From NCBI GenBank assembly GCA_947085505.1, contig CAMTWI010000004.1, positions 1,800 to 65,799 on the forward strand: DNA of 64,000 nucleotides. Reading direction: 5' to 3'. The notes beneath the pieces are model-generated. The model was not told where the DNA came from and searched no databases. It saw only the letters and a program-made list of their open reading frames with translations. The position numbers and the translations under genes are program-made. Positions within the stretch are counted from its first letter, which is position 1; each line of letters starts with the position of its first letter. Positions 29,249 to 47,481 of the stretch are shown here, piece after piece. The stretch is from an uncultured bacterium (GTDB lineage Bacteria > Patescibacteriota > Minisyncoccia > Phycocordibacterales > Phycocordibacteraceae).

Positions 29249-30388
29249 CTACACAACCGTTCGGTACAGATGAGTAGGGATATGCGCGAGTATCACGTAG
29301 GGCGTGGTGCTCGCCAGACGAGCCATAGAGAGGACAGAGTTTGTGTCTTCAGGATTCCGGCTTATAAGCGTAACTAGGTCTCCGCGCTTAACCTCTGTAT
29401 CGGTTACATCGATTGAAACCATATTCATCGACACACGCCCGACTATAGGACAGGCAATCTCGTTTACCTGAAGACTGCCAGTGTTCGAGAGATTGCGATC
29501 TATACCCTCGTAGTAGCCGGCAGGGACGGTTGCGATACGCGAAGGACGCGTAGCACGATATGTCGCGTTATACCCAACCGTGTCGCCTTCAGGGATGGTT
29601 CGAATTGATGTAACGAACGAGTGCATAGAGAGCACAGGCTTTAACTGAAGGGTGTCTCCTGGAGCGGTATTGTATCCGTATAGACCCATACCAATACGCA
29701 GGACATTCATAGGATGATTTACACTCGTTCGTACACCTTTTGTTGCGGCGGCATGCGTGTACTCAATCGAAGGGAATGCAGCTTTGACGGTCTCAAGTAG
29801 GGAATCCCAGAGGGAGAGTTGTGTATCCGTAAACGTGGCGTCGATATTGTCAGCGTCGGCCAAGTGCGTGGCAACACCTACAACTGAGATGCGGGGATTT
29901 CCCTTGATCAACTTTACTGCTTCATTAAGTCCTTCTGGAAGGAGACCCTGCCGATGCATGCCGGTATCGAGTTTCAGGTGCAGACGTACAGAAGTACGGG
30001 CCTCCTTCGCCACAGACCGAAGCTGCTCAATATCAACGATTGCGAAGTCTGTATTGGGTAATTTGCTTAAGACTATGGCCTCAGGCCGCACATAGCCCAT
30101 AACGACGATCCTGGAGCGTATTCCAGCCTTCCGGAGCATGTCTGCCTCATAAAGGGAATCAACCATAAAGAAGGCAATGTCTTCCTTGTCGAGGAGTTCT
30201 GCGATAACAACGAGTCCGTGCCCATAGGCGTTACTCTTGAGGACCGGAGCAATTGCTTGATCCGGGTACGCTTCTTTATATGTGCGGAAGTTATGTAAAA
30301 GGTTCTCTTTGGAGATTGCTACTGTTATGAGCGGCTCATGACGTCGTAGTAACCGGCGGAGCCTTCTCGCTACAGGACGGATATTCAT
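29249..30388 (-). CDS. alr: Alanine racemase
   Basis: Start moved to ATG 30388 (MNIRPV..) because the longer ORF runs into tRNA-Leu. PLP lysine context VLKSNAYGHG; C-terminal GRVSMNM. Confidence 0.9.
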   Translation of the reverse strand: MNIRPVARRLRRLLRRHEPLITVAISKENLLHNFRTYKEAYPDQAIAPVLKSNAYGHGLVVIAELLDKEDIAFFMVDSLYEADMLRKAGIRSRIVVMGYVRPEAIVLSKLPNTDFAIVDIEQLRSVAKEARTSVRLHLKLDTGMHRQGLLPEGLNEAVKLIKGNPRISVVGVATHLADADNIDATFTDTQLSLWDSLLETVKAAFPSIEYTHAAATKGVRTSVNHPMNVLRIGMGLYGYNTAPGDTLQLKPVLSMHSFVTSIRTIPEGDTVGYNATYRATRPSRIATVPAGYYEGIDRNLSNTGSLQVNEIACPIVGRVSMNMVSIDVTDTEVKRGDLVTLISRNPEDTNSVLSMARLASTTPYVILAHIPTHLYRTVV

Positions 30389-30390
30389 AG

Positions 30391-30475
30391 TACCGGGGGC
30401 GGGACTTGAACCCGCACGGCATTGCTGCCAAAGGTGTTTAAGACCTTCGTGTATAACCAATTCCACCACCCCGGC
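30391..30475 (-). tRNA. tRNA-Leu (UAA)
   Basis: Minus strand: GCCGGGGTGGTGGAATTGGTTATACACGAAGGTCTTAAACACCTT + long variable arm + GCGGGTTCAAGTCCCGCCCCCGGTA. Confidence 0.85.
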
Positions 30476-30965
30476 TTCTGTAACGAATGTTACTTCCTCT
30501 GTGCGTAGGTTTCAAACTGTGACAATTTGGACAAAGAATCCTCAAGTTCTCAAGTCTGTTATCCCTATTGTCTCCATTGATATGATCAAGCTCAATGGGT
30601 ACACGTCCATCAACACTCTTTTGGGCCCAACCACATTCTTCACATTGAGGTTTCTTAAGACCAGATGAAAATAGTCTTCTTTTTAAGTTTATGCGTGATG
30701 TGGACGTATTCTCTACAAGTAGCTCTTCCAATGAGTACACAGGCTCCTTTGGTATCTGCATGCCCTTACACCACGCCTTACCCTTAAAGTGAGTAATATC
30801 TATATCGTACTTATCAATATAGAGATAACACTGACTATAATTTCCACCCGCAGGAACAAGCCCAAGAGTCTGAATTAATCCTCGAATACTGCTTGAGGAA
30901 TTAACCGCTTTTCTTAGATTTCCTTCTTCCCAACGTTGAGGAATATGCTTGGCCACTACTGCCAA
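30438..30965 (-). CDS. Free-standing HNH homing-type endonuclease
   Basis: 175 aa, lower GC. CEECGW..ELDHINGDNRDNRLENLRILCPNCH is the HNH/zinc motif. The ORF fills the tRNA-Cys/tRNA-Leu spacer and its last 12 codons read into tRNA-Leu. Confidence 0.8.
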   Translation of the reverse strand: MAVVAKHIPQRWEEGNLRKAVNSSSSIRGLIQTLGLVPAGGNYSQCYLYIDKYDIDITHFKGKAWCKGMQIPKEPVYSLEELLVENTSTSRINLKRRLFSSGLKKPQCEECGWAQKSVDGRVPIELDHINGDNRDNRLENLRILCPNCHSLKPTHRGSNIRYRSRGGGIGYTRRS

Positions 30966-30979
30966 TTATAGCTCTATCT

Positions 30980-31054
30980 TGGAGGCCCAGACGGAAATCG
31001 CATCCGTGCATAGCGGGTTTGCAATCCGCCGTGTTTCTACTTCACCACTGGGCC
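30980..31054 (-). tRNA. tRNA-Cys (GCA), CCA encoded
   Basis: Minus strand: GGCCCAGTGGTGAAGTAGAAACACGGCGGATTGCAAACCCGCTATGCACGGATGCGATTTCCGTCTGGGCCTCCA. Unusual T-loop TGCGATT and an A-C pair closing the anticodon stem. Confidence 0.7.
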
Positions 31055-37845: not shown

Positions 37846-37870
37846 AAAGCCGCCCGAAAGGGCGGTTTCT
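37846..37870 (+). terminator. Intrinsic terminator after rpmG
   Basis: AAAGCCGCCC-GAAA-GGGCGGTTTCTCGTTT. Confidence 0.75.
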
Positions 37871-37896
37871 CGTTTACGTATTGAAATGTCTCCTGG

Positions 37897-37977
37897 GGAA
37901 ATGGAAAAACCGTCCGGAGACGGTTTTTCCAGTACGTTCGTGAACTCTTTGGCCGAAACCTCGGAAATCACGAACGT
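37897..37977 (-). ncRNA. Candidate ~80-nt small RNA
   Basis: Minus strand. Starts ~7 nt after a TTGACA-N17-TAGAGT promoter. Has a 10-bp perfect stem ACGTTCGTGA..TCACGAACGT enclosing the CCGAGGTTTCGG hairpin, then the terminator hairpin GGAAAAACCGTC-TCCG-GACGGTTTTTCC + ATTT. No start codon. Confidence 0.45.
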
Positions 37978-38012: not shown

Positions 38013-38040
38013 TACCCAAAAAGCAGGTTGGGGATAGCGG

Positions 38041-38067
38041 GCGGGCCCTGTGGGACGAGATTCGAAA
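38041..38067 (-). repeat. Pseudo-tRNA-3'-end element at the distal edge of the tRNA-Trp island
   Basis: Minus strand: TTTCGAATCTCGTCCCACAGGGCCCGC. T-loop-like TTCGAAT plus AGGGCCCGC, compared with the tRNA-Trp end TTCGATT..AGGCCCGC. 19/27 ungapped identity to the tRNA-Gln-locus repeat GTTCCAACATCGTCCCAGATTGCCAGC. Confidence 0.55.
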
Positions 38068-38090
38068 TATAATTCAGTTATAATAATGCA

Positions 38091-38993
38091 GTGAACACCA
38101 CTCTCATTCTCGAGGAGCTCTACTCAAAGGAGGAGATCGAAACTGCTTTCGATACTAATTTTGGTCCGCGCATAAAGGGTATTACTCAGCGACGTTCTTC
38201 AGATAATGAGCCATATATACTCATATTTGCTTCCGCTCGCGGCTCAATAGTGTACGGGGATAGGGTTGAGGGTAGGATTTTCTATTACAAGGGTGAGGGA
38301 TCAGACGGTGACCAGAAGCTTACAACCGCAAATAAGGCACTGATAAATTCAAATCTAAACAAGACACCCATCTTTGGTTTTCGTCAGCATGAGATTGGTG
38401 GCAAATACCAGTATCTTGGATTGGTATCGGTCCTTGAGTGGACCTATGCAGATTTCAATGGCAGAAAGGTGTATGAATTTAAATTCGAACAGGAGGGCTT
38501 AGAGAATCCTCTGCAAAGTACTAAAGAGTGGAATGAAATAAAGAACCAAAGTGAGCTTCCGGACCCATCCCTCACGGGAACGGGTGAAGTAGCTGTATCT
38601 ACTGTATCTAGCATAAAACGAAATGCAGCCTTTCCATTAAAGATTAAGGAGCAGTATCAGAATCGATGTGCTGTGTGTAGAAAATCACGGTGTACGGCTG
38701 CTGGGTACCCAGAGGTTCAGTCCGCCCATATATACCCAAAGGAGAAGAATGGAGCAGATGACTTAAGAAATGGCATAGCTCTATGCAGGCTTCATCACTG
38801 GGCTTTTGACGAGGGGCTGCTGGCTATTTCTGATGATTTAACTCTACTCGTTAACAATGCCATTACAAAGGATGAAGACTACGAAGAAATTAGCAAGTAC
38901 GCCGGAGTAGCTATCCTGCCTCCTCTGGACAAACGATATACACCGTTGCCACTTTTTCTGACAGAGCATAGAAAGCTACATGGGTTTGAGTAG
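38091..38993 (+). CDS. SRA(YDG)-like domain fused to HNH nuclease; putative modification-dependent (type IV) restriction enzyme
   Basis: 300 aa, GTG start. N-terminal YILIFASARG..FYYKGEGSDGDQKLTTANKALINS parallels the SRA motif Y.L...GGY....F.YTG.GG...DQKLT..N.AL. C-terminal CAVCRK..AHIYPK..NGIALCRLHHWAFD is HNH. Confidence 0.75.
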   Translation: MNTTLILEELYSKEEIETAFDTNFGPRIKGITQRRSSDNEPYILIFASARGSIVYGDRVEGRIFYYKGEGSDGDQKLTTANKALINSNLNKTPIFGFRQHEIGGKYQYLGLVSVLEWTYADFNGRKVYEFKFEQEGLENPLQSTKEWNEIKNQSELPDPSLTGTGEVAVSTVSSIKRNAAFPLKIKEQYQNRCAVCRKSRCTAAGYPEVQSAHIYPKEKNGADDLRNGIALCRLHHWAFDEGLLAISDDLTLLVNNAITKDEDYEEISKYAGVAILPPLDKRYTPLPLFLTEHRKLHGFE

Positions 38994-39083
38994 GTGTTGA
39001 TGAGTGCGAGTGCCCCCTAGGACAAGATTCAGCTTGCTTTAGAAGGGTATTGTGCCCCCAGGTACGAGTAGTATGATTCCTTC

Positions 39084-40088
39084 ATGAAGCTAAACTACGA
39101 AATAACGCCTGAGAATCTCAAGATTCTGGAAATCAAGCAAGTACTGCTGGATAAAGAGAAATTCGGTGCTCTTACGTTTGATCGGGCTTATTTACCTCTG
39201 CATGAGCTCAGGAAGATGTTTGTAGAGTTTCAAGAGCTCGACTACGCTTCTAAACTGGCTCCTGACGAAGTGCAAGAAGTGGAAAACTACAAGAATCAAC
39301 TTCTTGACTATGTTCGCCGAGTTCACTCAATAGATCCTACTACTGATCCTACTTTTAATACGAATGTTCGTGAGAATTTAGAAAATGAAATAATAAGTTT
39401 TTGTCAGCGAGTGAGTAAGGTTTTGAGAAACAACCTTGTCTATCTTAGACAGGAGCTTGCTCTTAGGAATCAGGACCAGCAAAGCTTAGCTGAAGAACAA
39501 AAAGCTACTGTGCAAGCGAGGAAGCAGGCAGAAGAAACGTTAAGTCAACTACAAGCAAAGCTTGAGGAACTAACTAGTAGAGAGCAGCAGCTCGAAAACA
39601 AATCAGGCGAGTTTGGTGCGAAGGCTCTCGGAATTCATTTTGGTACCGAGACAGATAACTATTCGGATGTAGCTAATAAGTGGTTTGTTGCCTCAATCGT
39701 TGCCTATCTTTTTCTTGTTTTCATCGTAATTGGTATAGGAATCTATTACAGTTTTTTCCATGGCGGCGGCTGGGAAACTCTTACGTGGCAGGAGGGAACC
39801 GCAAAGCTCTTTCTCTTTGCGGCTCTATGGTACGGATTAACCTTCATTACACGAAACTACAATGTAAATTCACATCTTGCTGCTGTAAATCGGCATCGTG
39901 CAGCAGTCGCTAAAACTCTCGAAGATTTCCTTGCTTCAAGTCCATCTGCTACTGGTGAAATGTTGAAGAATGGTACAGAAGCCATGTTTCGGCATGTAGC
40001 GATCGGTTTCATAACGAAAGCCGAAAAGGATTCTGGAAACCCTCTTCTTGAAGTCGTGAATAAGGTGGTGAATCCAAAAGGGGAATAA
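39084..40088 (+). CDS. Coiled-coil protein with C-terminal double-TM domain (unknown function)
   Basis: 334 aa. Heptad-rich QQSLAEEQKATVQARKQAEETLSQLQAKLEELTSREQQLE, then WFVASIVAYLFLVFIVIGIGIYY and LFLFAALWYGLTFI helices. Confidence 0.55.
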   Translation: MKLNYEITPENLKILEIKQVLLDKEKFGALTFDRAYLPLHELRKMFVEFQELDYASKLAPDEVQEVENYKNQLLDYVRRVHSIDPTTDPTFNTNVRENLENEIISFCQRVSKVLRNNLVYLRQELALRNQDQQSLAEEQKATVQARKQAEETLSQLQAKLEELTSREQQLENKSGEFGAKALGIHFGTETDNYSDVANKWFVASIVAYLFLVFIVIGIGIYYSFFHGGGWETLTWQEGTAKLFLFAALWYGLTFITRNYNVNSHLAAVNRHRAAVAKTLEDFLASSPSATGEMLKNGTEAMFRHVAIGFITKAEKDSGNPLLEVVNKVVNPKGE

Positions 40089-40203
40089 AATCAAAGGATA
40101 CGGTTGATTTCAAAATGATTCAGACCGTATGGAATGAGATAAAATTAGGTTACGGCTCCACACATCGTTTAAAATTTTAGGTAAACCAACTTTTCAATCA
40201 TCT

Positions 40204-40770
40204 TTAGGACAAAGAGTCTTTGGGGGTTGCAAGTTTTATATAGTCTAGCAATCGGTACTGATCTATAAGTTCAATCGGCTTGTCTTCAGCAAACTTTCTA
40301 GCTTCAAGAGTGAATCCTGCAGTAGTGATGAAATAGGCTTGCCCGTTTGCTAGGCGACCTGCTATAGCCCCGTAGAAATCTCTAATAGCTGACACCGGCA
40401 CCTGTCGAGTGATGTATCTCTTGCACTGAATATAGTTTGTAACACCGTTTTTCGTGGCAATCACATCAATCCCACCGTCGTAAGATTTTCCGACCGCTTC
40501 AGCCTGATACCCAAGTTGTATAAAAAGCTCAGCAATATAATCCTCGAACTCTTTAGGACTCATGCCCCGTATCCACTGGATAAGATCTCTATCAGATCTC
40601 CATTGCGCACCAGCCTTGAACTGCCGCTTGTTCCTCCATGAGCGATAGAGATCAGGTAAAACGACTTCGACCAGTACCCGAAGAACAAGCATTCCGAACA
40701 CGAAGACAATAAGCCATCCGAACACGGGTGAAAGCATTTCCACAATAGGATTGCTCGGAAAGATATCCAT
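40204..40770 (-). CDS. Membrane-anchored Mrr-like restriction endonuclease
   Basis: 188 aa. N-terminal TM (FGWLIVFVFGMLVLRVLV). FEDYIAELFIQLGY..DGGIDVIA...IQCKRY..V..IRDFYGA..FITTAGFT matches the Mrr_cat D-(Q/E)xK core (recalled). Confidence 0.8.
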   Translation of the reverse strand: MDIFPSNPIVEMLSPVFGWLIVFVFGMLVLRVLVEVVLPDLYRSWRNKRQFKAGAQWRSDRDLIQWIRGMSPKEFEDYIAELFIQLGYQAEAVGKSYDGGIDVIATKNGVTNYIQCKRYITRQVPVSAIRDFYGAIAGRLANGQAYFITTAGFTLEARKFAEDKPIELIDQYRLLDYIKLATPKDSLS

Positions 40771-40773
40771 TTC

Positions 40774-40974
40774 TTAAATACTATCACTCGGGCGTGCCTG
40801 CGTTTGAGGCTCTTCGGATAAGGCATCATAGAGCCTGGCCAAAGATCCTAAGAAAAGCTGAGCCTCGCCGGGAGAAACTTCAAGGTCGTAACTATTCTGG
40901 AAATAAGTGATCAGCCTTGTTTCCAAGCTTTTAGAAAACTTAAAATCAGAAGAGACGCTCTCTACAGTCCTCAT
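40774..40974 (-). CDS. Small hypothetical protein, paralog of 42340..42537
   Basis: Start moved to ATG 40974 (66 aa). LETRLITYFQNSYDLEVSPGEAQLFLGSLARLYDAL aligns with ELTNRTIAYYLGRGESISPETAQEYLRDMSSLYGSF. Confidence 0.4.
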   Translation of the reverse strand: MRTVESVSSDFKFSKSLETRLITYFQNSYDLEVSPGEAQLFLGSLARLYDALSEEPQTQARPSDSI

Positions 40975-41311
40975 ATACAAAAGTCTTTTGAGCCTCTGAA
41001 CTACACTTTGACCACTTGATATAATCCCCGTCAAAAGTGCCACAAGTACTCTGCGTGTGTGTTCCCATGGCAATACCCATTTCAGTAAGGCAGTCTCCGT
41101 ATGCTTTCATTTTAGTGTCCTGCGCTTTCATGGCTCTAATATTTGCTTCCTTCTGCGCGGCTTGCTGTTCAGGAGTTGGATTCGCACGCTGTACGGCCTG
41201 CTGGTGTACCTGAACGTCTTTCTGAGGCAGATAATAGCCGTAGTAATAACCAACAGAAATACCTCCTATTATCACGGCTAGGAGTGCAATCGGATCGAGG
41301 AAATTCTTCAT
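40946..41311 (-). CDS. Hypothetical membrane-anchored protein
   Basis: 121 aa. N-terminal TM (IALLAVIIGGISVGYYYGYY). Gln/Ala-rich linker and a Cys-containing C-terminus. Confidence 0.45.
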   Translation of the reverse strand: MKNFLDPIALLAVIIGGISVGYYYGYYLPQKDVQVHQQAVQRANPTPEQQAAQKEANIRAMKAQDTKMKAYGDCLTEMGIAMGTHTQSTCGTFDGDYIKWSKCSSEAQKTFVYEDCRERLF

Positions 41312-41340
41312 GGTCAGTAGGGGGACTGACCTCCCCTCAG

Positions 41341-41562
41341 TTATTTGAGGAAATAAGAAATATCTTTCTTGTAGATCTTGGCAAAGCGCTGAAGTTCTAT
41401 GACATCAACACGTTGTTGTCCCGACTCTACATTTGAGATATGCGACTGAGGCCTGTCGAGTTTCTTGGCAACTTCAGTCTGGGTCAGTCCTGCATCAAGG
41501 CGAGCCTTTCTAAGACGCTCGACAAAAACGGCATATTCCTTGGTATGAACTGACTTCTTCAT
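41341..41562 (-). CDS. XRE-family helix-turn-helix regulator
   Basis: 73 aa. RLRKARLDAGLTQTEVAKKLDRPQSHISNVESGQQRVDVIEL is a canonical HTH_3. Confidence 0.85.
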   Translation of the reverse strand: MKKSVHTKEYAVFVERLRKARLDAGLTQTEVAKKLDRPQSHISNVESGQQRVDVIELQRFAKIYKKDISYFLK

Positions 41563-41589
41563 ACACTAGAGCGTGTATCCAAGAAGTCA

Positions 41590-41608
41590 ATATCCAAATT
41601 ATGGATAT
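41590..41608. promoter_or_regulatory. Candidate operator palindrome in the divergent XRE intergenic region
   Basis: ATATCCA-AATTA-TGGATAT, a perfect 7-bp inverted repeat between divergent genes. Confidence 0.5.
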
Positions 41609-41653
41609 CGGTGGCAATTCGTAAAACAAGCGCTTTAGGTATATTCTTCGGCC

Positions 41654-42295
41654 ATGAGTCCAGAGGTAAGAAAGACCCTAGAGATTGTTTGTGCCGCAAT
41701 GCCTACTCGGCGTCAAGACGAGGAGTCTGATTTTTATTCGGTTCTCCTTACAGAGAAAGATTTTAAAAGGCAGGATCTAAGTATTGATGCTGGAGTCGCT
41801 GCGCTTAAGCATCTGGCTAGTACTGGTTCTGCTTTTGTCGAGGTTGGAAACATTTATGAAGCATCAATTGAAAACTTCGATGACCCTACGTTGGATGGGG
41901 AGCATTGTGTCGACATTTATGTTCACTCCTCTGTTCACCTAGAGCTGTTTGGAGGGTCTTCCATACCTGAGACAAAACCTACTTTTAGCTTTAGTGAAAA
42001 TATTCTAAAAGTAAATAGTCAGGACATATTATTTGGATCAATTGATGCAAAGGAAAAGGGAGCATATATATTGCAGTACATATTCGAGCATGATCTATCA
42101 GAACCTTCTGATTACAATGAAATACATGATCGTTTCTTTTTCGATGATCCAAGTTCTGGTTTTGGGAAAAGATTATACGAGGCATGCCGGATCATACGGC
42201 AAAGAGTTTTTGATATTTCCGGTGTGCGGGACTTTCTAATTTTTAACTCAAGCGACAAGGGCTCTGTAAGGATTAATCCTAAATATCTACCGTAG
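41654..42295 (+). CDS. Hypothetical protein (element-borne)
   Basis: 213-aa ORF divergent from the XRE gene. No motif recognised. Confidence 0.5.
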   Translation: MSPEVRKTLEIVCAAMPTRRQDEESDFYSVLLTEKDFKRQDLSIDAGVAALKHLASTGSAFVEVGNIYEASIENFDDPTLDGEHCVDIYVHSSVHLELFGGSSIPETKPTFSFSENILKVNSQDILFGSIDAKEKGAYILQYIFEHDLSEPSDYNEIHDRFFFDDPSSGFGKRLYEACRIIRQRVFDISGVRDFLIFNSSDKGSVRINPKYLP

Positions 42296-42339
42296 CTATA
42301 CGGTAGGATACCGTACGCCAAATTTTCTAAGCTCCCTTA

Positions 42340-42537
42340 GTGGAGCCTTTTTCATTTAGCCCAGAACTCACAAACCGCACTATTGCCTATTACTTGGGTC
42401 GTGGTGAATCCATATCTCCTGAAACAGCCCAGGAGTATTTAAGGGATATGTCGAGCCTCTACGGGTCGTTTATGGCGTTTGCGGACGTGCAGGAGGGGAA
42501 GGCGGCAGCGGCTTCAGCCGCGCCGTCGCACCCCTGA
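42340..42537 (+). CDS. Small hypothetical protein, paralog of 40774..40974
   Basis: 65 aa. Shared pattern L..R.I.Y(F/Y)......(V/I)SP(G/E).AQ.(F/Y)L...(A/S).LY. Confidence 0.4.
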   Translation: MEPFSFSPELTNRTIAYYLGRGESISPETAQEYLRDMSSLYGSFMAFADVQEGKAAAASAAPSHP

Positions 42538-42577
42538 CTTGATAAATAGCACATACAAGACACATACGAGATGAATC

Positions 42578-43351
42578 ATGGGATACACAAAAATTATTCA
42601 GTCAGGAGATCTAATCGAAAAATATGAGTACGAAAAACCTCCGCCCGAGCGTGTGCCTCGAAAGGTTAAGCCGGGGCGTATCGCTCCGTGGTCCGATCAA
42701 CTTACCGAAGAAAGGAGAGCAGATTGCATACACAAGAGACGAATATCAAGCATTAATCGTTGCCGCCAGTCGTTTTTCCGTCTCGTACGAGCGAATCTAC
42801 ACGCGGGCGCTCCCATCCTGCTCACACTCACAATGCTGGATATCGTGGACCTCAGAACTGCATACGCTTGCTACCACGAATTCGGACAAAGGCTGCGTCG
42901 AATTATCGGAAAGAATACTTCTTGGATTGCTGTGCCGGAGTTTCAGAAAAGGGATGCCGTACATTTCCATGTTCTGATCTGGAATCTACCCCATGAATAC
43001 ATTGAAACCGAACCAGACACCCGTCGAATTCAGAATCTCTGGAGAGCCGGTTATGTTGATCTTGTTCAGACAGACGGTTCGCCTAAGCTTGCTACCTACC
43101 TCGCAAAGTACATGTCCAAAGCGATGCAGGACCCTCGGCTCCTGGGACAAAAAGCGTATAGTGCTAGTCGGAATATATTGCGCCCGGTGTCGTTCAACAC
43201 TCAAACGTCGGTTAACACTGCTTGTGAGGTCTGGGGCATAACTGACGAGACAAAGCCAGAGTATGATCGGGAATTCGACACAAAGTGGATGGGGAAATGT
43301 CGCTATACTTCCTATTCTATCCAAAATATAGATAATGCTAAGGACGCATGA
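42578..43351 (+). CDS. HUH-type rolling-circle replication initiator (Rep)
   Basis: 257 aa. AVHFHVLIWN is the HUH motif and ATYLAKYMSK the Y-x-x-K-Y catalytic Tyr motif, as in small ssDNA phage/plasmid Reps. Confidence 0.7.
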   Translation: MGYTKIIQSGDLIEKYEYEKPPPERVPRKVKPGRIAPWSDQLTEERRADCIHKRRISSINRCRQSFFRLVRANLHAGAPILLTLTMLDIVDLRTAYACYHEFGQRLRRIIGKNTSWIAVPEFQKRDAVHFHVLIWNLPHEYIETEPDTRRIQNLWRAGYVDLVQTDGSPKLATYLAKYMSKAMQDPRLLGQKAYSASRNILRPVSFNTQTSVNTACEVWGITDETKPEYDREFDTKWMGKCRYTSYSIQNIDNAKDA

Positions 43352-44811
43352 AATACATTCTCTACTGTCGAAAATCTACGGATAACGAAGATAAGCAAGT
43401 CCTCTCACTCGATTCCCAGAAGATCGAGCTAGAACGTCTTGCTGAGCGTGAAGGTATAGAGATTGTTGCGACACTTACTGAAAGCCGGTCTGCAAAGGAG
43501 CCGGGTCGTCCCGTCTTCAATGAACTTATGCACCGAATCGCATCCGGTGAGGCCGATGCGGTTCTCTGTTGGAAAATAGATCGCCTTACTCGAAATCCTG
43601 TAGACGGTGGACAAATCCAATGGCTTCTCCAAAAAGGTTTGATCAAATCTATTCGGACCTTTGAACGAAGCTACAGCCCTTCTGACAATGTGCTGCTCAT
43701 GAGTATTGAACAGGCAATGGCTACTCAGTACCTTCGGGATCTGTCTGAGAATGTTAAACGCGGGAATAGAACCAAATTGGAACGAGGAGAGTGGCCAAGC
43801 TACGCACCTTTTGGCTACAAGAATGACAGGGTAAACAAAACTATTCTCGTAGATGAGAATCGCGCTCCTTATATTCGTCGGGCGTTTGAGCTATATGCAA
43901 CAGGTGGGTATGGCCTGAACCAAGTGGTAGAGATTCTTTATAGTGAGGGTTTCAGATCAAAGACTGGAGGCAAGGTTTTTAAGAACCAGATACATCATTT
44001 CCTAAATAGCCGTTTTTATATTGGCCTTATGGAAAGACAGGGAAAACTCTACCAGGGGAAGCATGAACCTCTTGTTTCTCAAGCTACGTTTGATCGAGTT
44101 CAAGAAGTGCTGCACGGAAGACTTCGTCCTTGCATGAAAAAGCATTTCTATTCTGCGCGCGGGTTCCTTAAATGCGAACTCTGCGGATGCATGATCACTG
44201 CTACTACCGCTAAGGGCCGGAAGTATTACTACTGCACAAATGGTAAGGGAAATTGCGGGGCCCACAAGAAATACCTAACTGAGGAAAAAACAGATCTTCT
44301 TGTCTCAAAACTCTTTTCCGAACTGGATATGGATGAGGAATTCATATTGCTCTGCGCGCAAGCCTTTCGAGAGGAGCACGGAAGTACCTCAACATATGAG
44401 GATCTACGTCCTGCAACTATCCAAAAGGAACTGGACGCTCTCGCTCTCAAAGAATCTCGCCTTACCGATTCCATGGCCTCTGGGGTCCTCAAAATGGAGC
44501 TGTACGAAGAGAAAATGCGTGAGATCGAGAATGGACGAACAGAACTCAAATCCCAGCTAAAAAGTATCGAAAATGAGAAGGGGGCCAATGCTACTTTCGA
44601 ACAGGTTCTAGATGTGTTTCTAGAAAGCAGTAGAGCCGCCAAACGATATTTGGAGGTTGATGAACAGGAAAAACGAAAGATGCTCGAAAAACTACTTTCG
44701 AACGCCTCTATCCTTGGAGAAGAAACGGCTTACTTTAAGTTTAAAAGTCCTTATCAGGCACTAGCTCTAGCACCTAAAAACAGGGATTTTCAAATGATGC
44801 GGGCCTACTAG
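43348..44811 (+). CDS. Large serine recombinase
   Basis: 487 aa. N-terminal resolvase catalytic domain (ILYCRKSTDNEDKQVLSLDSQ..CWKIDRLTRN), recombinase domain, Cys zinc-ribbon (CELCGC..YYYCTNGKGNC), C-terminal coiled coil. The 3' end overlaps tRNA-Trp. Confidence 0.9.
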   Translation: MKYILYCRKSTDNEDKQVLSLDSQKIELERLAEREGIEIVATLTESRSAKEPGRPVFNELMHRIASGEADAVLCWKIDRLTRNPVDGGQIQWLLQKGLIKSIRTFERSYSPSDNVLLMSIEQAMATQYLRDLSENVKRGNRTKLERGEWPSYAPFGYKNDRVNKTILVDENRAPYIRRAFELYATGGYGLNQVVEILYSEGFRSKTGGKVFKNQIHHFLNSRFYIGLMERQGKLYQGKHEPLVSQATFDRVQEVLHGRLRPCMKKHFYSARGFLKCELCGCMITATTAKGRKYYYCTNGKGNCGAHKKYLTEEKTDLLVSKLFSELDMDEEFILLCAQAFREEHGSTSTYEDLRPATIQKELDALALKESRLTDSMASGVLKMELYEEKMREIENGRTELKSQLKSIENEKGANATFEQVLDVFLESSRAAKRYLEVDEQEKRKMLEKLLSNASILGEETAYFKFKSPYQALALAPKNRDFQMMRAY

Positions 44812-44870
44812 GAATCGAACCTAGGACGTCGGTTTTGGAGACCGAAGTTATACCATTTAACTATAGACCC
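44800..44870 (-). tRNA. tRNA-Trp (CCA)
   Basis: Minus strand: GGGTCTATAGTTAAATGGTATAACTTCGGTCTCCAAAACCGACGTCCTAGGTTCGATTCCTAGTAGGCCCG. Anticodon loop CTCCAAA. Confidence 0.9.
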
Positions 44871-46566: not shown

Positions 46567-47481
46567 ATGAAAAGAATATTTTTACTCGTTCTAGGATTCT
46601 CCCTACTTCTACCCCTTTCTGTAGAAGCGCAGTTCGGTCCCATAGTGCCTGAAGTGTGCCGCACGTGCGCGTGTGGATTTGGTGGAGTGCTTGCTATTGT
46701 GCAAAATGTCGTCAATTTCATGATCGGTATAGCGATTATTTTCGCCACTATCATCATGGTATGGGCAGGAGGTCTCTACATACTTTCTGCAGCTAATCCT
46801 GAAAGCCGTAGTACGGCAAACAAAATGCTCATCAATGCGGTTATAGGTCTTCTGATTGTTCTGTCTGCGTGGCTAATTGTCGACTTTGTTATGAAGACGC
46901 TTTATAACAACGGCAGCGAATTCGGTCCATGGAACTCCATCCTGCTTGGTGGTTCAGGAGACAGCTGTGTAGTGGCGAAGCCAACGACACCACTTTTTAG
47001 TGGAAATATCCTTGCTGTGCCTGGAATGGGAACGGGGAGTGAAAACACAGGAGCGAGCGGTACTGTGGAGCTTGCTGGGGGCTGTACGGGTACGGGTACA
47101 AATTCAACGTGCTCTCGTTTGCCAAGTAATGTTGTATGTGAGGCGAGAGGCTGTTATGCAGATGCAGGGTTGGCAGCAGCGCTGGGTAATATCCGCAGCA
47201 GTGTAGGATGGGCTGTTACAGAAGGGTACCCAAAATCTCGATCCCATCGTGCAGCATGTCACTCAAATGGAACATGTGTTGATGTAGGTCTTCGTCCTAG
47301 AAATTACACCATAGAAAATATTATTGCATTTGACACTGCAGCTAAGGCAGCTGGTTTACGACCCGTTTACGAGGAGAAAGAGGACAGAGATTTCGTCGAA
47401 CAACTCAAGAGAAGAGGGGTGAATGCAATTTTCTTAGGCGATCACATTAGTGCTGATCACTTCTCTGTCTACGCTAATTAA
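46567..47481 (+). CDS. Pilin-like module fused to a putative zinc D,D-peptidase (M15/hedgehog-fold-like) domain
   Basis: Start moved to ATG 46567. N-terminal ~130 aa are paralogous to 44949.. (MLINAVIGLLIVLSAWLIVDFVMKTLYN, GPWNSILLGG, PLFSGNI). C-terminal SRSHRAACHSNGTCVDVG ... ADHFSV resembles H-x-x-G-x-x-x-D ... H zinc ligands. Confidence 0.55.
   Translation: MKRIFLLVLGFSLLLPLSVEAQFGPIVPEVCRTCACGFGGVLAIVQNVVNFMIGIAIIFATIIMVWAGGLYILSAANPESRSTANKMLINAVIGLLIVLSAWLIVDFVMKTLYNNGSEFGPWNSILLGGSGDSCVVAKPTTPLFSGNILAVPGMGTGSENTGASGTVELAGGCTGTGTNSTCSRLPSNVVCEARGCYADAGLAAALGNIRSSVGWAVTEGYPKSRSHRAACHSNGTCVDVGLRPRNYTIENIIAFDTAAKAAGLRPVYEEKEDRDFVEQLKRRGVNAIFLGDHISADHFSVYAN

Follow-up and report, generated by a model that had tools for sequence, protein, structure and literature searches.

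A probable 6.76-kb integrative element with a rolling-circle initiator and a large serine recombinase at the tRNA-Trp gene of a Patescibacteria bacterium

The locus and the insertion at tRNA-Trp

The stretch of DNA analysed here, referred to as the window, comprises 64,000 nucleotides of contig CAMTWI010000004.1 (assembly GCA_947085505.1; positions 1,800 to 65,799 of the forward strand) from an uncultured bacterium. Between positions 38041 and 44805 it contains an integrated element of 6,758 bp (with one copy of the recombination core counted, the ends being set by a direct repeat), in which a rolling-circle initiator of the HUH type (Rep) is followed by a large serine recombinase (LSR) that runs into the 3' end of a tRNA-Trp gene. 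We consider it probable that the locus represents an integrative element of 6.76 kb, carried on the chromosome of a member of the Patescibacteria (Paceibacterota). An integrated element at tRNA-Trp combining these two enzymes had been proposed in an earlier note made from the letters of the window; the proposal is borne out by an empty site in a close relative (locus L003), by profile searches and by the recurrence of the combination in dozens of loci, and all open reading frames (ORFs) listed in that note are present at or very near the positions given for them. The locus contains the following features (window coordinates, strand, description; HMM, hidden Markov model; att, attachment site; pLDDT, predicted local distance difference test):

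38017-38040, no strand: 24 nt without counterpart in the empty site of L003, the alignment to which stops at 38016
38041-38066, plus: attL, consisting of the core GCGGGCC (38041-38047) and the element-side arm CTGTGGGACGAGATTCGAA
38091-38993, plus: SRA-HNH nuclease, 300 aa (HNH_2, 4.9e-11; PADLOC HNH, 5.9e-13)
39084-40088, plus: 334-aa protein, by eye with a coiled-coil N-terminal part and hydrophobic C-terminal segments
40204-40770, minus: 188-aa restriction endonuclease of the Mrr type, hydrophobic at its N-terminus (Mrr_cat, 8.7e-29)
40774-40974, minus: second p65-family gene, 66 aa (BLASTP against p65, E=4e-5; family HMM, 4.9e-17)
40946-41311, minus: 121-aa protein, hydrophobic at its N-terminus, encoded downstream of the XRE gene
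41341-41562, minus: XRE-type repressor, 73 aa (HTH_3, 4.5e-12; phrog_3 repressor, 2.8e-11)
41590-41608, no strand: candidate operator ATATCCA-AATTA-TGGATAT, between the XRE gene and the divergent p213 operon
41654-42295, plus: p213, a backbone gene with homologues in LSR loci and Zot contigs
42340-42537, plus: p65, 65 aa, helix-loop-long-helix (family HMM; AF2 model, pLDDT 87.4)
42494-42543, plus: candidate double-strand origin, a GC-rich hairpin (42494-42535) followed by ACTTGAT (42537-42543)
42578-43351, plus: Rep, HUH rolling-circle initiator with two tyrosines, 257 aa (PF23343; phrog_3419)
43348-44811, plus: LSR, 487 aa (Resolvase, Recombinase and Zn_ribbon_recom domains; phrog_95)
44799-44870, minus: tRNA-Trp(cca), the integration target (ARAGORN; Rfam, 68.3 bits), with the attR core at 44799-44805

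A scan of one genome per species with a neighbouring ClpB gene yielded 80 syntenic loci, all of them from metagenome-assembled genomes of Patescibacteria / Paceibacterota. An exact look-up of ClpB gave no record. In the closest relative, L003 (ClpB protein 97%, DNA around 85% identical) the site is empty: window position 38016 is joined to position 44799 with 2 nt between them, and the tRNA-Trp gene, which there has an encoded CCA, directly abuts the left flank. By this comparison the insert corresponds to window 38017-44798. At the same spot, L004 contains an unrelated block of 4.1 kb (L004 8424-12567), which includes a J-domain-like ORF, and L005 contains around 1 kb of unrelated DNA (L005 7069-8024). 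The search for an empty tRNA-Trp site and the comparison of tRNA-Trp loci across relatives, both suggested as checks in the earlier note, thus yielded the empty site of L003 and relatives in which the block is absent or different.

Concerning the ends of the element, the positions 38036 and 44870 assumed originally are close, but they are corrected to 38041 and 44805 by a direct repeat of 7 bp, GCGGGCC, with copies at 38041-38047 and 44799-44805; this sequence is complementary to the 3' end of the tRNA-Trp acceptor. No long direct repeat above chance length exists between the edges of the element, and the 7-bp repeat was recognised only by means of the related element L084 (Rep 71%, recombinase 82% identical). 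The left end of L084 lies in another flank, reads TA-GCGGGCCC-TGTGGGACGAGATTCGA and is 100% identical to window 38041-38065 over 25 nt; because this identity is found in a different flank, GCGGGCC is taken as the core. On the left side, the element-side arm extends for around 18 nt beyond the core and is conserved, and only 7 bp are identical between the two att sites. The pseudo-tRNA end that had been seen at the far edge (38041-38066) consists, in the light of L084, of the recombination core plus the element-side arm. The predicted junctions are ...GGGATTTTCAAATGAT-GCGGGCC-CTGTGGGACGAGATTCGAAATATAA... for attP and ...GGTTGGGGATAGCG-GCGGGCC-TACTAGGAATCGAACC... for attB. A fixed rule of half-site spacing, with attP arms 5 bp longer than attB arms, was dropped because the offsets were inconsistent.

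The motif of core plus arm recurs between rpmG and tRNA-Trp in 9 other syntenic relatives, in L013 only around 420 nt from the tRNA (L013 14459-14885) and in L063 twice in tandem (5087 and 5925). To judge from these copies, the tRNA-Trp flank is used repeatedly by elements of the same family. The 24 nt at 38017-38040 begin with ACCCAAAAA, 25 nt from the core, which is the same distance as for the LSR 3' ends of family members, and may be what is left of an earlier element's recombinase-side arm. The region downstream of tRNA-Trp constitutes a hotspot in this clade, with unrelated blocks as well as relics of the same att motif.

The replication and recombination module and its family

Rep scores 58 bits with the profile PF23343 (REP_ORF2-G2P; cutoff 27.8) and matches at 2.7e-20 the family phrog_3419, annotated as rolling-circle DNA replication initiation; the RepSA profile stays below threshold with 31.5 bits versus a cutoff of 34. 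In an alignment of 28 Rep homologues, H129 and H131 (HFH, 129-131) as well as Y174, K177 and Y178 (YxxKY) are invariant, and the two-tyrosine motif reads YLAKYMSK in the window. The protein collection contains 440 homologues of Rep, and no relative of solved structure was found by sequence. The HUH/YxxKY Rep at 42578-43351, recognised already in the earlier note together with its 4-nt overlap with the recombinase, is hence supported by both profiles; the start of the LSR gene overlaps the rep stop in the sequence ATGA.

In the 260 nt upstream of Rep, a 7-mer is common across the family: ACTTG[AC]T is present in 76 of 91 distinct loci versus 4.4% of shuffled sequences. By class, it is found in 48 of 51 loci with a recombinase, in 14 of 24 with Zot only, in both loci (2/2) having the two genes, and in 12 of 14 having neither. 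It is usually situated around 41 nt before the Rep start codon and after a GC-rich hairpin of locus-specific sequence; a stem of at least 10 bp precedes the motif in 41% of the cases, versus 8% at random control positions. In the window, GACTTG/ATA (the slash marks the predicted nick) lies 41 nt upstream of rep, and the preceding hairpin at 42494-42535 folds as DNA at -18.7 kcal/mol (z=-2.6). The viral-strand origin of phiX174 (NC_001422, annotated rep_origin 4306) reads CCCCCAACTTG/ATATTAATAAC and the candidate origin in the window CACCCCTGACTTG/ATAAATAGC, such that ACTTG/ATA and the preceding CCCC run are common to both. The predicted nick-site sequence of Rep is GACTTGATA. Because the motif is conserved and resembles that of phiX174, and because Rep possesses a two-tyrosine motif, the nick between G42541 and A42542 on the plus strand is likely the start of rolling-circle replication.

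The LSR exhibits a Resolvase domain (PF00239, 1.8e-20, residues 4-149) with the catalytic Ser10 in YCRKST, a Recombinase domain (PF07508, 2.1e-15) and the zinc-ribbon cysteines CxxC...CxxxxxxC, and it aligns with the integrase family phrog_95 over residues 1-458 (1.4e-80). Its relatives among solved structures are the A118 integrase (C-terminal domain), SprA of SPbeta and the TP901-1 integrase. Profile searches, which had also been recommended as a check, thus return both the Rep and the recombinase call, with the zinc ribbon as a borderline case. The overlap of the 487-aa ORF with the tRNA-Trp 3' end amounts to 12-13 nt, in agreement with the 12 nt described before, and the tRNA is called by ARAGORN as well as Rfam; the last four codons and the stop lie inside the tRNA gene, and in its integrated state the LSR gene ends at a TAG supplied by the tRNA T-stem. 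On the circle, we infer, the attachment site would span the last LSR codons, and the excised form would encode a protein of 497 aa ending in ...MMRALWDEIRNIIQL instead of ...MMRAY.

Around 110 Rep loci were fetched by exact look-ups and by scans of viral and metagenome contigs and were sorted locally. The order p65, origin, Rep, LSR recurs in around 45 metagenomic loci, in which Rep is directly followed by an LSR 44-82% identical to that of the window, and none of which has a Zot gene within 10 kb; the 4-nt overlap of rep and LSR is also found in L083, L084, L085 and L092. In further loci, Rep is followed by a recombinase of a distant type, just 25-30% identical to that of the window. Among these loci, L104 and L105 combine Zot with Rep and LSR and look like integrating filamentous phages.

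The LSR gene extends into the 3' end of an opposite-strand tRNA gene in 27 loci (around 17 distinct elements), with its stop codon 12-40 nt past the tRNA boundary. One LSR lineage targets the tRNAs for Trp, Gln (two anticodons), Asn and Tyr, the first three with a common TAGGAnTCGAACCTA T-arm, and the second lineage, that of the distant type, targets Glu. Trp, Gln-ctg and Asn have a constant overlap of 12 nt, with a stop TAG complementary to the T-stem in TAGGAnTCGAACCTA. In L089, a 20-nt repeat resembling tRNA-Asn is situated 7.8 kb upstream of the tRNA and, together with it, encloses copper-resistance genes.

The same Rep family and origin motif are carried by circular, Zot-encoding contigs of 4.9-6.3 kb. 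The class to which these belong comprises 13 contigs of 4.9-6.4 kb with a Zot-like gene and without a recombinase (L088, L097-L101, L117-L120, L123, L189 and L191), 11 of which are regarded as circular on the ground of terminal repeats, measuring 25 nt for L088 and 99-123 nt for the rest. Four of the five Zot-like proteins tested pass the Pfam cutoff for Zot, and all five match PHROGs for M13 protein I. The circular Zot contigs look like genomes of filamentous phages.

A different distribution is found for p65: each of the 40 loci with the LSR type of the window has a family member immediately upstream of Rep, versus none of 13 loci with the distant LSR type and none of 26 Zot-only loci (all by HMM). 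Since p65 tracks one LSR lineage while Rep and origin do not, we regard the protein as a candidate for the directionality factor of its LSR type or for some other accessory; small directionality factors are known for other serine integrases. The AF2 model of p65 is a helix hairpin and gave no specific fold match. The two proteins of around 65 aa, originally reported as paralogous, both match one family HMM at around 1e-17, in agreement with the BLASTP match between them, and the second is called as a 66-aa gene in contig L196. Homologue searches in an indexed database returned two matches each for p65 and p213; local HMMs run on the fetched loci gave more.

Cargo, regulatory genes and flanks

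Concerning the cargo, two of the three nuclease or membrane genes listed in the earlier note are confirmed as nucleases, namely an SRA plus HNH_2 protein and an Mrr_cat protein. The former matches SAD_SRA at 1.8e-6, which is below the cutoff of that profile, and weakly SRA_ScoMcrA, thus resembling modification-dependent restriction enzymes of the ScoMcrA type. The latter is additionally matched in PADLOC by mREase_IV (4.3e-14) and PDC-S02 (6e-15). By their domain content, both are type IV-like, modification-dependent nucleases. The 334-aa protein reaches no family threshold in Pfam, PHROGs or PADLOC and has no homologue in the other loci of the family; the 121-aa protein matches no family in Pfam or PHROGs and has a homologue in the same position in L083. 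Judged by eye, two of the element's proteins without assigned function look membrane-associated. Searches with Pfam, PHROGs and a Zot HMM revealed no virion-assembly or transfer gene in the element: Zot was detected in the window neither by an HMM built from the Zot genes of the related circular genomes nor by Pfam or PHROGs, and no element ORF contains an FtsK/SpoIIIE-type Tra domain according to Pfam and PHROGs.

The cargo varies among members of the family. In 14 other members, the 7 kb preceding Rep contain DNA methylases and restriction enzymes as the commonest families, alongside a Shedu domain and SMC/AAA_15 ATPases; some of these genes may belong to the host. The contigs L089-L094, originating from JGI and Logan and from several samples, contain around 7.8 kb at tRNA-Asn with a CsoR-like repressor, a P-type ATPase and a DUF305 protein, gene contents that point to copper resistance in place of defence. 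In L085, L089, L131, L142, L144 and L152, a minus-strand ORF of 320-360 aa is situated just upstream of the p65-Rep operon; it has no Pfam match on record in L085 and L089, and it is absent from the element in the window.

The XRE repressor, identified as such from the beginning and confirmed by its HTH_3 match, is 89% identical to its counterpart in L083, where the upstream region of the gene is 83% conserved. The operator described as a perfect palindrome has two perfect arms of 7 bp, but these are separated by a spacer of 5 nt. It overlaps promoter-like sites for the XRE gene on the minus strand (41625-41598 and 41617-41589), and the chance of such a 7-bp inverted repeat in that intergenic region is estimated at around 3%. 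Ten LSR loci possess a homologue of p213 on the upstream side of Rep (7 distinct alignments; full-length in L084), and the C-terminal part of p213 occurs also in the Zot contigs L107-L110. The AF2 model of p213 is of low confidence (pLDDT 57.5), with values of 70-84 for approximately residues 110-190, and Foldseek returned only weak, non-significant matches to GntR-type DNA-binding domains (E>=0.5); according to the model, the C-terminal domain (residues 110-207) may be a winged helix-turn-helix.

The element has a GC content of 0.445, versus around 0.52 in the host flanks, which agrees with the earlier description as a lower-GC block. However, the low GC continues past the tRNA (0.468) into pilin genes which are present in the empty-site relative as well, such that composition alone does not mark the right edge; for the same reason, the pilin genes and the low-GC stretch to the right of the tRNA were rejected as a part of the element. 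These genes are two paralogous T4SS_pilin genes (PF18895; 44949-45983 and around 46567-47481) with a 191-aa ORF between them; the pair shares a stretch of 93 nt at 78% identity and is possibly part of an older island. Low GC (0.41-0.45) is found in a second patch as well, at 30250-31000, adjoining tRNA-Leu(taa) and tRNA-Cys. The tRNA-Trp gene of the window exhibits a compensatory change from C-G to T-A in the acceptor stem (44806 / 44864) compared with L003 and L004, and it lacks an encoded CCA, ending in GC-ATC instead of GCCA.

Just outside the left edge, a promoter-like sequence TTGACA-17-TAGAGT is found on the minus strand (38012-37984). It agrees with the consensus at 10 of 12 positions and is kept in three relatives, L003, L004 and L005, in line with the strongly promoted small RNA proposed for this place; yet an Rfam scan outside the left edge gave no family near threshold. 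Conservation of the small-RNA candidate is confined to the three nearest relatives, which are too few for covariation. Its transcript would run towards around 37850-37930 and is followed by two hairpins, which also terminate rpmG from the other side. In the empty site, the -35 box of this promoter is situated 2 nt from the CCA end of tRNA-Trp and roughly mirrors the tRNA T-arm; the -35 region may double as the host-side att arm.

Life cycle, alternative explanations and known systems

From these features we infer a life cycle with excision and episomal replication. The LSR would insert the circular form into tRNA-Trp at its 3' acceptor end, by a crossover within GCGGGCC. The XRE repressor, which is divergent from the operon p213-p65-Rep-LSR and faces the 7-bp inverted repeat, probably silences this operon. 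Upon derepression, the LSR, perhaps together with p65, would excise the element, and Rep would nick the plus strand at GACTTG/ATA and replicate the excised circle by the rolling-circle mode. The two nucleases would defend the host, and hence the element, against phage or foreign DNA with modified bases. The element has no virion or transfer gene, such that its movement between cells would have to depend on something else.

A double life as integrated copy and episome had been suggested in the earlier note; it is supported by the conserved origin and by circular relatives with the same Rep and origin, whereas the circular 6.8-kb form asked for there was not found in the assemblies queried. Neither did these assemblies contain an attP junction or the longer recombinase of the excised form: when Rep, LSR, pilin and p65 were looked up as exact proteins, all contigs returned were integrated or internal, the 90% cluster of the LSR includes no longer variant, and the sequence of core plus arm has no match in IMG/VR. 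This is one of several points that weigh against the interpretation as an integrative element. The direct repeat is just 7 bp long, and the 24 nt at 38017-38040 are not explained by a simple insertion into a site like that of L003. The zinc ribbon of the LSR (PF13408, Zn_ribbon_recom) scores 25.2 bits, with a cutoff of 25.3. The origin is deduced from conservation and from the resemblance to phiX174. Finally, some genes counted in the 14 loci surveyed for cargo may be of host origin.

With regard to transfer, the element could be a satellite of filamentous, Zot-encoding phages, its single-stranded DNA being packaged and exported by a helper with the same type of Rep and origin, in the way that RS1 and TLC depend on CTXphi. 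This explanation, which we regard as possible but rather unlikely, refines the interpretation as an integrative element and does not contradict it. The element and the circular Zot genomes have Rep and the ACTTG[AC]T origin in common, and the Rep of the window is nearer to the Reps of Zot phages (53% identical to L088, 51% to L119) than to most Reps linked to an LSR (38-47%), the two groups being interleaved; in the same direction point the C-terminal domain of p213 in the Zot contigs L107-L110, the combination of Zot, Rep and LSR in L104 and L105, and the presence of repressor, Rep and integrase without any morphogenesis gene. Nevertheless, a packaging signal was not identified, no helper phage is known for the host and none lies in the window, and the nearest Zot-phage Rep sampled is just 53% identical. 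The label of an element like a single-stranded DNA phage, used in the earlier note, holds for the ancestry and perhaps for a helper, but not for the element itself, which is without a virion or transfer gene. A wider version, which we consider unlikely, would make the Zot-less elements of the p65-origin-Rep-LSR type in general satellites of uncharacterised filamentous phages of Patescibacteria, which reside in tRNA genes, carry restriction and defence cargo, are excised with the aid of p65, replicate by rolling circle and leave the cell in the filament of a helper. If this were true, they would be the first filamentous-phage satellites acting as carriers of defence islands, and much of the gene exchange in this phylum, whose genomes are very small and whose known mobile elements are few, would pass through them as a main route.

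The same absence of Zot and coat genes next to a phage-type Rep, repressor and integrase would also be expected of a decayed filamentous prophage, an immobile remnant that drifts after the loss of its structural genes, and the tRNA-Trp flank of relatives is indeed littered with relics of the same att motif. All nine backbone and cargo ORFs are, however, intact, the origin motif and the att arms are conserved, and the Zot-less architecture with varied cargo in around 45 loci, at Rep identities of 38-76%, argues for a maintained lifestyle; we regard decay as very unlikely. Highly improbable in our view is an integrative mobilizable element (IME), in which Rep would serve as relaxase and the origin as origin of transfer, and export would proceed through a type IV secretion system encoded elsewhere and possibly related to the adjacent pilin genes. 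HUH Rep-like proteins do act as relaxases in some IMEs and integrative and conjugative elements (reviewed in PMC5704250; PMC7563843), and two T4SS_pilin genes lie immediately to the right of the tRNA; but these are present in the empty-site relative and hence do not belong to the element, neither a coupling protein nor another transfer gene exists in or next to it, and its Rep family is otherwise found as replication protein in small circular Zot genomes. That the block is ordinary host DNA of odd composition, with a coincidental tRNA overlap, finds some support in the low GC running past the tRNA into host pilin genes, but it is refuted by the empty site of L003, precise within 2 nt, and by the same module adjoining other tRNAs in unrelated contexts, and retains practically no probability.

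Understood as an integrative element, the locus belongs to a family that provides reduced genomes with a defined vehicle for genes of restriction-modification, defence and metal resistance. Its varied tRNA targets provide a natural series of attP and attB sites, with which the target choice of LSRs can be studied or re-used, and p65 represents a testable candidate for a directionality factor, a kind of protein hard to predict from sequence. The common Rep and origin link small circular genomes resembling filamentous phages with integrating versions and with cargo-carrying derivatives without virion genes.

Among known systems, the gene A protein and the origin of phiX174 are similar in the two-tyrosine motif and identical in the nick core ACTTG/ATA after a run of C; the origin of the element, unlike that of phiX174, is situated outside the rep gene and after a hairpin. 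Pfam and PHROGs scans of Rep gave no microvirus Rep family, and no direct comparison with the gene A protein was made. Similar in module content are RS1 and TLC of Vibrio cholerae, which possess Rep, a repressor and an integration function without morphogenesis genes and have the type of Rep in common with a complete phage. RS1 and TLC integrate through the host's XerCD at dif, and the element differs from them by its defence cargo and by having no known helper.

The phages phiRSM1 and phiRSM3 of Ralstonia combine, like the element, a replicon of the filamentous-phage type with a serine recombinase of their own and insert at a tRNA 3' end in reverse orientation; repressor and integrase are further common components, the repressor gene of phiRSM adjoining that of the integrase (PMC3816273). 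However, phiRSM has a small recombinase of the resolvase/invertase type, a core of 13 bp and the full set of morphogenesis genes (PMC3816273), whereas the element has a large serine recombinase, a core of 7 bp and neither Zot nor coat genes. Inoviruses in hosts of the candidate phyla radiation, and serine recombinases among the integration genes of inoviruses, were reported by Roux et al. (PMC6813254).

The actinomycete integrative and conjugative elements (AICEs) of the pSAM2 type, which together with the phiRSM phages come nearest to the element, are equally small, situated at a tRNA 3' end and equipped with a rolling-circle initiator with phiX174-like motifs and a site-specific recombinase, and replication is expected after excision. 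A mycobacterial group of AICEs uses a serine recombinase at tRNA-Leu, although integration into tRNA genes by serine recombinases is called rare (PMC3218068). Despite this similarity, the element lacks the FtsK/SpoIIIE-type Tra as well as Pif, Kor and Spd genes, its Rep is of the inovirus gene-2 type (PF23343), the genes for Rep and recombinase overlap by 4 nt, the att site lies over the recombinase stop, the host belongs to the Patescibacteria, and the cargo consists of restriction nucleases. With tycheposons, islands resembling phage-inducible chromosomal islands, and pipolins, the element has in common an integrase that faces inward from a tRNA, a small adjoining replication module, a variable and often defensive cargo and the repeated use of a tRNA hotspot; these elements mostly possess tyrosine recombinases together with a primase/helicase or PolB, whereas the element possesses an HUH Rep and a phiX174-like origin (bioRxiv 10.1101/2020.12.28.424599; PMC11551731).

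A full-text literature search of incomplete coverage returned no publication connecting large serine recombinases to Patescibacteria and none on the p65-origin-Rep-LSR module. Apparently undescribed are the compact module, the phiX174-like origin, the att site over the recombinase stop, the Zot-less form with defence cargo and the host phylum; the components as such, and their overall logic, are familiar from AICEs and from filamentous phages that integrate or act as satellites.

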